Assembly (NCBI GenBank): GCA_027036675.1
Contig: JALWDW010000008.1
Location: 1 to 52,410 of the forward strand
Source: Candidatus Dojkabacteria bacterium
Lineage (GTDB): Bacteria; Patescibacteriota; Dojkabacteria; SC72; JAHDCA01
DNA length: 52,410 nucleotides
Reading direction: 5' to 3'
Position numbers and translations under genes: made by a program
Notes under the pieces: model-generated
Databases searched by the model: none
Seen by the model: the letters and a program-made list of their open reading frames with translations, nothing else
Told to the model about the DNA's origin: nothing
In this document: piece after piece, positions 11,296 through 36,637 of the stretch
Numbering within the stretch: position 1 is the first letter of the stretch
How the letters are laid out: each line of letters starts with the position of its first letter

Positions 11296-11304
11296 AGTAT
11301 ATCA
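11296..11304 (-). promoter_or_regulatory. extended -10 (TGATATACT) upstream of tRNA-Leu
   Basis: The minus strand reads TGATATACT, ending about 12 nt before the tRNA 5' end. Same TGN-TATAAT style as other promoters in the window. Confidence 0.35.
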
Positions 11305-11331
11305 CAACCCGGACTTCGAACACACGTTCTG

Positions 11332-11869
11332 CATTCTAATTCCGATCGCAACAAGTCGGGGTTGAACCCCGGGCTTAAACCCCGGACTTGACAAAGGAAC
11401 CTTATCACCATGGGAATAATCACCAAGAAAATCTTGCGATTAATATTATTTTAATCGAAATTTAATGGCCAACTTACGTTGTCGTATAGGCGTTTACGAG
11501 TGCCCGTCGCTCTGGAGCGCGCATCCCGGGGACTCCGCGTATTCCTTGCAGACATGGCCTTTATCGATATTTTATAGCGACAGCGGACGATATAGCGTAC
11601 CTGAGTATAGGTGCAGAGCATGTTGACGTGTCATCGGTCGTATATTGAGAAAATGTCACTAAGAAAGCTCTGTCGCGACGCACAGTGTGCCGTGAGAACT
11701 GTAATTACGCGACATTTGTATATATCGTATACGCTCTATTTTGCATATTTGGCCGAGCCGAAATCTTGCCAACTATACCTACTACAACAGCGTTGCCACA
11801 CAATCAGTGGGTTCGAAGACCGGGTCGCAACCCCGACTTTGAATACCCGTTGCAATCGGAAATAGAATG
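11332..11869. repeat. element A: ~538-bp ORF-free structured intergenic element (candidate large ncRNA or MITE-like)
   Basis: 21-nt terminal inverted complement (19/21) plus an inner 11-nt perfect complement. Gap-free homology to 22289-22820. Confidence 0.7.
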
Positions 11870-11919
11870 TAGGAATTTGCGGTTCTGCACAACATTTGCG
11901 CAGGTTAAATCAATTTCAC

Positions 11920-11980: not shown

Positions 11981-12706
11981 ATGAAACGGAACGATTTAAA
12001 CAGGTTTACGGACCTGCACGATATACAAATGCAAATCATCAACGACCTGGCGAGGACAGGTCCGGCCACGTTTGGCGTATTGAGGCCGCATGACGTCGCG
12101 ACCGATCATTTCACATACCACATCAAAACAGTCATAGAAAAAGGGTTGGTAGCGGTGGATCGCCGTAACGGTAAGAAATACTACGTTCTCACGGAGCTTG
12201 GTAAACGGTTTGCGGATTCATTTGAGTTTTCAAAGAAGAAATTACTTGATCAAGGGATGATCATCACGGTATTTTGCGTATCGAAGGAGGTGAAAGGAGA
12301 AACAAAGTACCTGATGTCAAAACGGTTGTACGCGCCTTGGAAGGGGCATCTCGGATTCCCGGCCGGCAAAGTTCATTTTGGTGAAACAACTTTCGAAACG
12401 GCCAGACGGGAGCTTCTGGAGGAAACTGGCCTGGAAGCTCAACTGGAACTGCGGCAGGTCATTCATTATATTGATTTTGATGAGACCGGCCAGCTATTGC
12501 GTGATATCTATAAGTTTGTTTACGAAGGTAAAAACCCGCGCGGTGAGTTTCACCGGGTGGCCGACAATGGGCGTACCGAAAATTACTGGCTTACCAGATC
12601 GGAGATCGAGAGGCATAAGGTATATCCCGGATTTTGGGATGATTTTTTCATGTGGGGTAATGACGACTTCTATATCGAAAAAGTCAGAACGGTCGAGGGG
12701 TATTGA
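11981..12706 (+). CDS. winged-helix DNA-binding domain fused to a Nudix hydrolase
   Basis: N-terminal wHTH-like region (IINDLARTGPATFGVL...KGLVAV). C-terminal Nudix box GFPAGKVHFGETTFETARRELLEETGL. Confidence 0.7.
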   Translation: MKRNDLNRFTDLHDIQMQIINDLARTGPATFGVLRPHDVATDHFTYHIKTVIEKGLVAVDRRNGKKYYVLTELGKRFADSFEFSKKKLLDQGMIITVFCVSKEVKGETKYLMSKRLYAPWKGHLGFPAGKVHFGETTFETARRELLEETGLEAQLELRQVIHYIDFDETGQLLRDIYKFVYEGKNPRGEFHRVADNGRTENYWLTRSEIERHKVYPGFWDDFFMWGNDDFYIEKVRTVEGY

Positions 12707-12780
12707 TATTGCAAGTATTGGTGGACCAGGTGCCACCATACGTTGTATACTTCAAATGGCGCAGTTAGATTACAATACAT

Positions 12781-13470
12781 GTGCATATGAGGCTCGCATC
12801 TGACAAATGGGGACAATTGACGGATAACTTCGACATCACGGGGTCGGTCAAGCATCAAGACTCCGCAGATAATGTGGAAATAGCATGGCCTGTGATCATC
12901 GGTAATCTCCCCGACAGTGGAGAGGTAATCGATTTTGGTTGCGGAACCGGCGGTTTTTGTCATTATCTGCATGAGCTTGGCTTTTCGGTTGCTGGTATAG
13001 ACAATTCGCCGGGTATGCTGGACGTGGCAAGAAAACTTTTTCCGCAAATACGATTTTATCGATCCTGGGATAAGAGTGGATGTGGCGACGGGACCTTGGA
13101 TGCCGTAACCTGCGTGATGTCTCTTCAATTTGTACAAGACGTGGAAGATGTATTATCTCGTATAAGTAAAATATTGAAAAACGGTGGTAGACTTATCGTA
13201 GCTACATTTAACCCTGATTTTATATCGGAAGGCTTGAAGCAAGGGAACTTCTTTTCGCAAGAGAATGAAGGTTTATATTCCTTTGGAGATTTGAAAATAC
13301 CTACATACGGCAGGAGCGAAAAAGAGTATATAAGGATGGCTCGTGAACGTGGTTTGACGCATGTACGCACGTACTATCCGCCTTTCACTCAAGAATTCAT
13401 AGAAAAGTACTCACCGAAGTATCCTACAAACGTGCCGGAATTTATGATCATGGTGTTTGATAAAGCTTGA
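12781..13470 (+). CDS. class I SAM-dependent methyltransferase
   Basis: VIDFGCGTGGF motif I, acidic motif II (AGIDNSPGML), LKNGGRLIV. Confidence 0.75.
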   Translation: MHMRLASDKWGQLTDNFDITGSVKHQDSADNVEIAWPVIIGNLPDSGEVIDFGCGTGGFCHYLHELGFSVAGIDNSPGMLDVARKLFPQIRFYRSWDKSGCGDGTLDAVTCVMSLQFVQDVEDVLSRISKILKNGGRLIVATFNPDFISEGLKQGNFFSQENEGLYSFGDLKIPTYGRSEKEYIRMARERGLTHVRTYYPPFTQEFIEKYSPKYPTNVPEFMIMVFDKA

Positions 13471-13747
13471 GAATTTGAATTGATAGCCCTTGCTCTGGTT
13501 TCATAACCCTTTACAATTTTCGTATTGCATGGAAGCTCTGGTCGGCATTCCGGTCGCCAAAAGCATCCGTTAGACAATAATCGACTATAGGGTGTGCACA
13601 GCCCATACGGTTCCTTGGCATTTAAGGAAATGTTTATTTTCCGGTTTTCCTACCAAAATAATCCCGACGAATGGTTCGTGGCTTCTCTTGTTGAGCGACC
13701 TTCATTGCATGTGGCACGCATCGTTACTCACGGCTGGTTTAGCGTGC

Positions 13748-18706: not shown

Positions 18707-19654
18707 AAATCATATTTGCCGTCTTTCCTGTCATGCGCGCTTATCGTAACATATTTCTCTGGGGAAGGGAAGAGGGCGGGGGGGGCGACCCCGGGCTTTG
18801 GTAGCATCCTTCGGGCGATAGGATGCGTACTACAGGTTGGTGGCGGTCTAATAGTTTGTTGGGCTGATGGTGTACTTACGGGCTTTGTACGAAGCCTGTA
18901 GCTTTTATTTCACAATTATTGCATGACTCGGCGAAGCCGAGTCATGCAGCCGCGAGTGCACCACTTCGGTAGAAAACGCCCAGAAGTCGGGGGTGAAGTG
19001 CTGCCGAAGAAAATTCGGCTGGCCAAAATATGGCGAAGTCATGGGACGTAGCTGCGTAGTTGAACACGATATCCCATACCTACAGGATAATACGAGACTT
19101 CGTTGATCGTTGCTGTCATGGGATCAGTACGTTTAGTGACAGGATATTTAAGGTAATCCGAGAAAGACAATGACAGACCCGGTTTACATCGTATCTTGCG
19201 TGTGTCCGTATTACCTCATACACAGCCATATCATGATATGGCGATAGTATCCGTGTCATGGGATTTACATGTCCCATCAAAGATTTTATGACGAAATGAC
19301 GTGTGATACCGCCCTTTTTCTTGGACAACAGGTGACATGACGATGATTACGAGTGAATCATGAATTTTGCATAACTAGGGGTGTTGCCATGGTGTTTCTT
19401 CTCTAAGGGTGGGACCCATGGTAGGACCGGAATCCCGGCGTCCATGTACGGCGCGTGTCCAATATACCGATGTACCGGAGTCTGCGCATATACGGGTGAG
19501 TAATGTACCATCAGGACCTTGGCTTGTCGCTGACGCGAATACTCTCGATCGTTTCACGGGGATTTGCGATAGACAATCCTGATCGTAGAGTCGGAGGCTT
19601 CACTGGGTGGGTAAGCGCGACTCCTGGCTGATGACATTAATCACAGGGAATGCC

Positions 19655-22281: not shown

Positions 22282-22288
22282 AGCCGAT

Positions 22289-22820
22289 CGCGATCGCTAC
22301 AAGTCGGGGATGAACCCCGGGCTTAAACCCCAGACTTGACATGGAAACCTTATCACCATGGGAATAACCGGCAAGAAAATCTTGCGGTTAATATTATTTT
22401 AATCGGAATTTAATGACCAACTTACTGTGTCGTATAAGCGCTTGTGAGTACCCGTCGCTCTGGAGCGCACATCCTGGGATCTCTGCGTATTCCTTGCAGG
22501 CACGGTTTTTATCGATACTTTGTAGATATGGTAGATGGAACGATGTACCTAAACATACGTACGGAGCGGGTTGCTGTGTTGTCTGCCGTATCTTGAGAAA
22601 ATGTCCCCGAAAAAGCGCCTTTTCAGCGTCTAATGTGCAGTGAGAGCAGTGACCACACGGTATTTGTATATGTCGTATAGGTTCTGTTTTGCACATTAAA
22701 ACTGGGTGACACTTTGTTGACCAGCTGCATTACAACAGCGTTTTCGCCCAATCAGTGGGTATGAAGATCGGGTCCCAACCCCGACGTTGCATGCTCCTTG
22801 CAATCGGAAATAGGATTTAC
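22289..22820. repeat. element B: second copy of the ~530-bp ORF-free element
   Basis: Aligns to 11341-11872 at a constant offset of 10,948 with no indels. Begins right after the MFS stop codon. Confidence 0.7.
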
Positions 22821-22892
22821 GATGTTTTTGTGTAATATAACTTTTATGATATAGTTCGTGTCATCTAAGCTCATATTCACAAAATCGGAGAA

Positions 22893-35084: not shown

Positions 35085-35125
35085 AAGGTTATCGAATGGT
35101 AAATTTACTTATCAAATTACTGGAT

Positions 35126-35134
35126 ATTATACCA
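35126..35134 (-). promoter_or_regulatory. extended -10 TGGTATAAT (minus strand)
   Basis: The minus strand reads TGGTATAAT, 41 nt upstream of the ATG at 35084. Confidence 0.4.
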
Positions 35135-35787
35135 CAAAACAGCCTATAGCGCTACCTAGCAATCGAAGCCGGGGTTGGACCCCAGGCTTGAACCCCGGGC
35201 TTGATGTGAAGGTATTGTTATCGTGAGAATGAAGGGTAGAAAAACAGGATTTTCAGGGGCTTGGCTATAGAAATTGTACAATCGGTTTATATTGTCACAC
35301 CAATCTTTTCAACGCCCTACCACACCGAAGTGAGTGATTTCCCATGACTACAAGGTTTATCCCAGGTTTCAATAGTTTTCCGCTCCCGTAGCGGGTAAGC
35401 CTATGTTTTTTTACATAGTCAAAGTAAGACATAATGACATTGTCCAATGACAACGGGTGTTTTACTTGGGTATGGAGTATTGCGATAACCGCTTTATTTA
35501 TATCTGAGGCTTCGTAAGTCCTACGAGAGGAATTTCGGTAATACTATTTTTTATCTAACAGTCCGGGGGATGCTTTTCTATATAGATGAAAACTTAATGA
35601 AAACTTCACATCCGATGTGAAGTATCAGCAGTGGCACCGCATCCGCAATCGTGGTAGCGACTGTGGGTGCGGTCTTAATGAAAACTTAGTCCTCGTTCCC
35701 CGCCGGGTCGTGAGTTGCCAGTGCTTGAATGTTGCCGGCGGGGCTCGCGATTGCTACTGCAGATGAAAATTTAATGAAAATTTCACG

Positions 35788-35932
35788 TCGGCTGGGGCGC
35801 CCATTATCCGAGGACCTTGACCTGTGGCGTGAGTAGAGCTTTTGTGGGTCCGCGGACTGGTTCCGTTGAGGAAGGTTTCCTTCGCGGATGAAGATTTAAA
35901 GCCTCCGGCGTAATTCCCCGACCGTAAGGTCG
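35788..35932 (+). repeat. 145-bp direct repeat, copy 1
   Basis: Identical to 36178-36322 except at 3 positions. Confidence 0.9.
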
Positions 35933-36177
35933 ATTGGGGATGAAGTAGCTCCCAAATCGTCAGGACGATGTGCTGAAGGTTGCTCAGCGGATTGCAGTAT
36001 GTCGATTTACCTGTGTGTAATGTATGTATGTTGTACTCGAAGCTACGGCATGATATGCGTTGAGAATAAATTTACATTCGGCAGTATTTTGGACGTTGAC
36101 GATATTCGAAAGATTTGGGACAAACGAAGTTTGTAAAGTCGATACCCCGACCGGCAGGTCGTGGGAGAGGCTTCATC

Positions 36178-36322
36178 TCGGCTGGGGCGCCCATTATCCG
36201 AGGACCTTGACCTGTGGCGTGAGTAGAGCTTTTGTGGGTCCGCGGACTGGTTCCGTTGAGGAAGGTTTCCTTCGCGGATGAAGATTTAACGCCTCCGGCG
36301 TAATCCCACGACCGTAAGGTCG
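36178..36322 (+). repeat. 145-bp direct repeat, copy 2
   Basis: Same as copy 1, 390 bp downstream. Differences are A/C, T/C and C/A near the 3' end. Confidence 0.9.
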
Positions 36323-36619
36323 GGGGACTGTAGTTGCGACCGCAGGTTGAAGCACGTCCTTCAATAATAGGCTCTGTCATTGGGATAAACCAATACAGGT
36401 AAGACAGTGTATTGCCATCAACTCCCGTCCATCCGGTATCGGTTGGGCGACTCCTCAAAGCCCACTGTCATTGTACAGAAGGTGTATTTGCCTACGTCCA
36501 GCCTTTTTGAGCCATCACCGGAAATCACGAATTCCGGGCCATGCAGCCTGTGGCCACAGTGCTTTGTCTCAAAGGGTGGGTTCCCATCCCGGGGTCGAGG
36601 CCAGGCTTCGCATTCCTTA

Positions 36620-36628
36620 TGATATAAT
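36620..36628 (+). promoter_or_regulatory. extended -10 TGATATAAT immediately upstream of proS
   Basis: TATAAT ends 9 nt before ATG 36638, which implies a leaderless or near-leaderless mRNA. Confidence 0.45.
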
Positions 36629-36637
36629 TTCTCCATT

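Follow-up and report, generated by a model that had tools for sequence, protein, structure and literature searches.

The window analysed here, 52,410 nucleotides long, is contig C8 of assembly G000 (GCA_027036675.1), from an uncultured Patescibacteria (CPR) bacterium of the Dojkabacteria. Other contig labels below (C4, C10, C41 and so on) refer to the same assembly, which holds 881 kb (0.88 Mb) on 49 contigs, is 83% complete and is ~87% coding; the genomes of its relatives span 0.5-1.6 Mb. Four blocks of the window, termed A to D, are linked by a short module: the pattern GGGGNNNNNCCCCRGGCTT matches at exactly four positions (11358, 18780, 22306 and 35171), all on the + strand, where dinucleotide-preserving shuffles give an expectation of 0.01 matches. 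The earlier note had drawn attention to these four + strand copies, and the shared, palindromic and intergenic module is indeed present and non-random. The letters that it gave for A (AAGTC at 11353), B (22301) and C (AAGCC at 35166) are exactly those of the sequence, whereas its partial copy D agrees only in the GGGG-N-CCCCGGGCTT part and carries eight G after GGGC, not seven.

In a 548-bp non-coding element, MITE A (11334-11881, + strand), module copy A (11353-11391, + strand) sits 20 nt in from the left end. The element is flanked by two copies of the 8-bp sequence GTTCTGCA (11326-11333 and 11882-11889). A sister strain, represented by three assemblies (L033, which is GCA_027024505.1, L034 and L035) and reached via a truncated homologue of the NUDIX gene, is without exactly 11334-11881 and keeps a single GTTCTGCA. 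The sister-strain contigs align at 97-98% identity as far as 11333 and pick up again at 11882, overlapping by 8 bp in the subject; the 548 bp are therefore an insertion flanked by a target-site duplication, and copy A is a true insertion. Module copy B (22301-22339, + strand) forms the left part of a second such element, MITE B (22282-22829, + strand; bounds approximate, set by register with A), which is common to both strains. A clear target duplication was found at copy A only, and none is detectable at the other, older copies, those of the C type included.

Copies A and B each open a ~530-nt repeat; the two repeats are 76-77% identical and nearly gapless, with repeat blocks at a constant offset of 10,948 nt. 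The genes downstream are unrelated, a NUDIX gene following A and a glutamine amidotransferase gene following B. Across the genome this A-type family has ~18 copies, 61-93% identical (median 70%) over ~500 nt, and conservation falls from 89% in the module region to 83% in the next 130 nt and 64% in the interior. A hidden small ORF was considered and rejected: the ATG in ATGGGAATAA is unconserved among copies, and substitutions are spread evenly over the codon positions (3681/3669/3563) with no 3-base periodicity. The short ORFs of A are, moreover, not the same as those of B.

Both elements carry the module again, inverted, at their right ends. In MITE A the right terminal repeat contains a degenerate three-site module at 11802-11839 on the - strand (alignment score 68.5, shuffle maximum 34.5), whose reverse complement reads AAGTCGGGGTT, GCGACCCGGTCTT and CGAACCCACTGATT in succession; in MITE B, end-to-end alignment places the corresponding inverted module at 22750-22787 (- strand). 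The left module aligns with the reverse complement of the right end over ~50 nt plus an outer 20-25 nt, the latter being a further inverted repeat, ATTCTAWTTCCGATYGCAAC, that lies outside the half-site array at both A-type ends. For MITE A, MITE B, the C block and the C41 element described below, the alignment of left with right end beats all 200 shuffles.

The module itself is built from three half-sites of ~12 nt, AACCCCGRCTT, one inverted and two direct. Half-site 1 (AAGTCGGGGTT) is inverted and abuts half-site 2 (GAACCCCGGGCTT) to form a palindrome, while half-site 3 (AAACCCCGGACTT) stands in direct orientation 13 nt beyond site 2 and leads into TTGACA, a hexamer that is invariant among copies directly after the module. 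A-type copies have GACTT at half-sites 1 and 3 and GGCTT at site 2; the C type has GGCTT at every site. The complementarity within the module is thus explained by inverted and direct copies of one half-site lying within a terminal inverted repeat. A genome-wide list of half-sites also includes many further repeats that end exactly at G[GA]CTTCG.

The third copy belongs to a different element. Module copy C (AAGCCGGGGTTGGACCCCAGGCTTGAACCCCGGGCTTGA; 35166-35204, + strand) is part of the left terminal repeat of a non-coding C-type element, which here forms a block (35163-36610, + strand) enlarged by copies of further repeats nested within it. The surrounding 1.55-kb gap between genes (35085-36637) has only a 39-46-nt module in common with the A-type copies. 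The basic C-type form is ~780 nt long, as at C41:14719-15495; the left 370 nt and right 270 nt of the C block match that element, and the middle consists of other repeats. Partial copies lie on C25, C22, C45, C12 and C15, and the genome holds at least five C-type copies. Conservation starts flush at (AAT)CGAAGCC, and the right end closes with the inverted module ...GGCTTCG, found in the C block as GGTGGGTTCCCATCCCGGGGTCGAGGCCAGGCTTCG at 36575-36610 on the - strand (alignment score 45, shuffle maximum 36). Next come an extended -10 box, TGATATAAT (36620-36628), and the start of proS (36638). A-type and C-type elements therefore have unrelated interiors and the same end module, as would be expected of a sequence recognised by a transposase.

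Both strains have the left end of C, module included. In the sister-strain locus (L049) the left end of the C block is present and 575 nt (35596-36170) are missing, a segment that coincides with one unit of an internal 151-nt duplication (35782-35932 and 36172-36322, 97% identical).

Block D (18774-18937, + strand) is a separate repeat, a family of ~165 nt with five copies that has one half-site in common with the module. Its layout comprises CCCGGGCTTTGG, a variable hairpin and TACTAsAGG, and the copies lie at 18790-18840 in the window and at C13:12534, C19:1898, C33:16218 and C44:1907 elsewhere in the assembly. The hairpin stem varies among copies yet stays complementary (GCATCCT/AGGATGC, CACCCT/AGGGC and CACCCT/AGGGGTG), and the D-type repeat, known from five copies only, could itself be a small structured element. 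The copy on C19 lies ~200 nt upstream of a Y1/HUH gene, either IS200-like or RAYT-like (C19:2119-2720).

A fuzzy search of the whole genome finds ~26 module copies, on both contig strands, and a separate pattern count gives 15 forward and 10 reverse modules against 0 for a control pattern. Despite a genome that is ~87% coding, 23 of the 26 copies are intergenic, and their orientation relative to the downstream gene is split ~50/50 between same and opposite. Outside this genome the module was not found in 40 relatives with up to 3 mismatches allowed, in 185,579 species genomes (one genome per species), in JGI metagenome contigs or in phage and plasmid collections. A metagenome scan with the protein of a neighbouring gene likewise gave no match. 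An order-wide BLAST search with the whole A-type element returned only two short matches. When species genomes were scanned with the outer 20-mer of the A-type ends, matches were at about chance level, plus one Dojkabacteria MAG.

Small size, lack of coding capacity, terminal inverted repeats, dispersed copies and, for copy A, an empty site in a sister strain are all found here, as in MITEs. We consider it likely that the module is a terminal-repeat module shared by several MITE families, and most probably an array of transposase-binding sites. At least two families carry it in their long, imperfect terminal inverted repeats, of which it makes up the inner portion (A/B type) or the terminal one (C type). 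The same half-site array, degenerate and inverted, recurs at the other end of each element, and a mobilising transposase would then bind the array at both ends. Counting against such a reading is the palindrome inside each end, a feature that simple DDE transposons do not typically show there.

The earlier note had favoured RNA, on the grounds that the outer stem AAGTC/GACTT of A and B becomes AAGCC/GGCTT in C. That double change is present, and the module could on this basis be a hairpin-in-stem of a transcribed RNA, for example the 5' domain of a multicopy non-coding RNA, or a processing site. Standard pairs form in 93% of cells of the proposed stems, a second double change (G-C to A-T) occurs in the inner hairpin of C10:11822, the path T-A, T-G, C-G of the first passes through a wobble pair, and the invariant TTGACA follows the module immediately on its 3' side. 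Over the 26 copies, the highlighted pair is T-A in 16, T-G in 4, C-G in 3 and other in 3. However, the three C-G copies (on C8, C22 and C25) are all of the C type and so amount to about one event, and the tabulated covariation does not exceed that of shuffled controls: 46 of 500 shuffles attain the observed score for the structure proposed in the earlier note, and 49 of 500 do so for an alternative helix. These two structures are mutually exclusive and fit equally well. Because C-type elements have GGCTT in all three half-sites, the apparent compensation is equally well a variant of a repeated site, and we infer that the change is a family-specific half-site variant rather than the product of RNA base pairing.

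Other observations likewise speak against a transcribed structure. On an unbiased two-end ladder, G:T occupies 28 cells and A:C 46, with no G:T excess and hence no sign of a strand-specific RNA; folding z of the interior averages about -1 on both strands; and a helix scan of the ~500-nt alignments on either strand finds no long covarying helix. RNAalifold, applied to the same alignments, returns only long-range pairing of the two ends and a few weak helices. Rfam gives no match at the gathering threshold and, at a lax threshold, one chance match (E=6). There is no -10 box 16-18 nt past TTGACA (the position 17 nt past it reads TGGGAA and is variable among copies), the orientation of modules relative to genes is random, and the inverted module recurs at the opposite end of each element. 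The RNA reading is not supported by the tests run and appears very improbable, and the single compensatory pair does not favour RNA as had been argued. A DNA-level hairpin or cruciform, which the earlier note had mentioned in brackets, is possible.

Three further candidates were set aside. A closing helix from RNAalifold, rich in G:U and seemingly strand-specific, proved to be an ascertainment artefact, the ladder having been redefined from consensus complementarity. A cyanobacterial or rRNA leader, guessed from GATCGC motifs, was dropped, the window holding no rRNA and the relatives having genomes of 0.5-1.6 Mb. A sigma-70 promoter with TTGACA as its -35 element was also rejected, there being no promoter at 11386-11391.

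The position of many elements raises the alternative that a host DNA-binding protein uses the half-sites as operators or as promoter-associated sites, the palindrome serving a dimer and one half-site being extra, in which case the repeats would spread or conserve a regulatory module next to promoters. The palindrome of sites 1 and 2 is typical of dimeric HTH operators, and extended -10 boxes (TGnTATAAT) follow many element ends at a distance of 8-13 nt, among them those of proS (36620-36628) and of 5-6 tRNA genes. In addition, the right end of MITE A (11839-11868) carries an outward-facing TTGAAT-N18-TAGAAT. Yet ~37 of 43 tRNA promoters have no half-site, anything from 0 to 25 nt separates half-site and -10 box, modules face toward and away from genes equally often, and the module travels with a mobile element that bears a target duplication. 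The spacers between element ends and -10 boxes differ in both sequence and length. Such a regulatory role thus seems decidedly unlikely, and we do not take the proximity to promoters to mean that the half-site has a core promoter role; in a genome this compact, the elements would have inserted or survived in the only space that is free. Effects of MITE A on its neighbours are nevertheless possible because of the outward-facing promoter-like sequence at its right end.

Promoters of tRNA and other genes in this genome are of the extended -10 type (TGnTATAAT) with no recognisable -35. Repeat ends of the form ...GGCTTCG stand 8-13 nt upstream of such boxes at 36605-36628 in the window, at what is apparently the proS promoter, and ahead of several tRNA genes, at C2:12756, C22:162, C26:556 and C29:9089.

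If a transposase binds the array, its gene may be among the 17% of the genome that the assembly does not cover; no autonomous IS with matching ends was found in the 83%-complete assembly. Whole-genome profile searches found no transposases of the IS256, ISL3, IS4/5, rve, IS66 or IS6 groups. The sole DDE transposase detected was of the IS1595 family (C44:19634-20050, 97 bits). It belongs to an IS of ~757 bp (C44:19379-20135; L048 1080-1836) with a 222-aa ORF and 24-nt inverted repeats, ATTAAATATTGGGGTCTTGTGAAG, of which a second, partial end lies at C4:440. The 8-bp duplication recalls the IS1595 family, from which MITEs with 8-bp duplications are on record, such as the ISHwa6-derived MITE of Haloquadratum walsbyi (PMC3852290, table 4), and a transposase gene of this family is present in the same genome; but the inverted repeats of the resident IS differ, its ends having at most a short, weak similarity to the MITE ends. 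Duplication length, the one feature that connects the MITEs with IS1595, makes a link possible but is not diagnostic, since the IS6 family also makes 8-bp repeats (PMC7986276).

Alternatively, the module could be a REP-like hairpin recognised as single-stranded DNA by a tyrosine HUH (Y1, RAYT-like) transposase. The genome has a Y1_Tnp gene (C19:2139-2483, 53.6 bits) in a 200-aa open frame with the HUH motif HYH, the module forms a short G+C hairpin near element ends, C-type copies show no target duplications, and compensatory changes would suit a DNA hairpin. As in REP/REPIN systems with their RAYT, there are short, G+C-rich, intergenic palindromes in inverted pairs. Y1 transposases (IS200/IS605), however, are not known to make target duplications, whereas copy A has a clean one of 8 bp, and the elements are 0.5-0.8 kb long, 5-8 times longer than REPINs. 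The 38.5-kb contig with the Y1 gene contains neither a half-site nor a GGGG-N3-7-CCCC hairpin, so that this gene is not flanked by the module as a RAYT is by its REPs. We regard mobilisation by the Y1 enzyme through such a hairpin as very unlikely, and prefer the reading in which a transposase binds the half-site array at both ends of the MITEs.

The A-type copies have one property that simple decay does not account for. Among 15 copies with a median identity of 70%, only 8 columns in 500 are gapped, while intergenic DNA compared between the two strains has 9 gap openings per 125 substitutions, or ~1 per 14; indels are therefore ~tenfold rarer among the copies, which implies a constraint on length or spacing. 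Furthermore, copy A was inserted after the strains split, and no other copy in the assembly comes closer to it than 89% identity. A passive, decaying MITE predicts neither the scarcity of indels nor so distant a relative. The elements could instead be long-lived, competing lineages with a functional interior, an RNA or DNA scaffold for their own mobilisation, and with a half-site array bound by the resident Y1/HUH or some other enzyme. Favouring this idea are the scarcity of indels at 30-39% divergence, the strong conservation of the left 170 nt of A-type copies (83-89%) and the 89% relative of copy A; as a whole we consider it unlikely.

In their general character the elements resemble prokaryotic MITEs such as Correia/NEMIS of Neisseria. 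Like these, they are small, protein-less, dispersed and intergenic, with terminal inverted repeats, a target-site duplication that is clear at copy A, insertion polymorphism between strains and outward promoter-like ends. Correia/NEMIS elements, however, are ~100-160 bp long and duplicate TA, whereas those described here measure 548-780 bp with an 8-bp duplication. Further differences are ends made of ~70 nt of repeated half-sites, an end module common to several families, copies that are old (median 70%) yet near indel-free, and a host that is a CPR bacterium with a ~1-Mb genome. Several copies of one short site in inverted arrays also occur at the ends of Mu, Tn7 and the IR-DR type of Tc1/mariner transposons. 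Mu and Tn7 differ in making 5-bp duplications, compared with 8 bp here, and multi-site transposon ends differ in that one site of the present module is inverted relative to the other two. The likeness is one of architecture.

For annotation, these blocks would be better masked as mobile repeats than labelled as RNA genes or riboswitch-like leaders. Our data indicate that a streamlined CPR genome of ~1 Mb carries several MITE families, active now or until recently, that are built on one end module. Their members are squeezed into scarce intergenic space, often directly upstream of extended -10 promoters. Should the mobilising enzyme be found, the half-site array would offer a defined DNA substrate for the study of transposition in a lineage whose mobile DNA is nearly unexplored.

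The genes beside solo outer-end fragments are housekeeping ones (ftsH, efp, recA and RuBisCO), with no transposase among them. The match in the Dojkabacteria MAG noted above consists of one outer end sequence, CCTACATTCTAGTTCCGAGTGCAAC, at L042 1508-1534 (G018:C32; JAQVGB010000048.1, Candidatus Dojkabacteria). That genome belongs to another family of the same order, and the sequence lies there in a divergent intergenic region with no adjoining module.

Two observations concern the neighbourhood of MITE A. At 11302-11317 a half-site-like sequence, AACCCGGACTTCGAAC, adjoins the extended -10 box of a tRNA-Leu gene, 10 nt from the insertion point. The same AACCCGGACTTCGAAC is present in the sister strain without MITE A, and insertions may therefore cluster beside pre-existing repeat fragments. 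On the other side, ~1 kb of the window (12511-13507) is missing in sister-strain locus L033. The gap takes in a SAM-methyltransferase gene in full (12781-13470) and the C-terminal portion of the NUDIX gene, and the NUDIX product is 176 aa long in L033 and 241 aa here.
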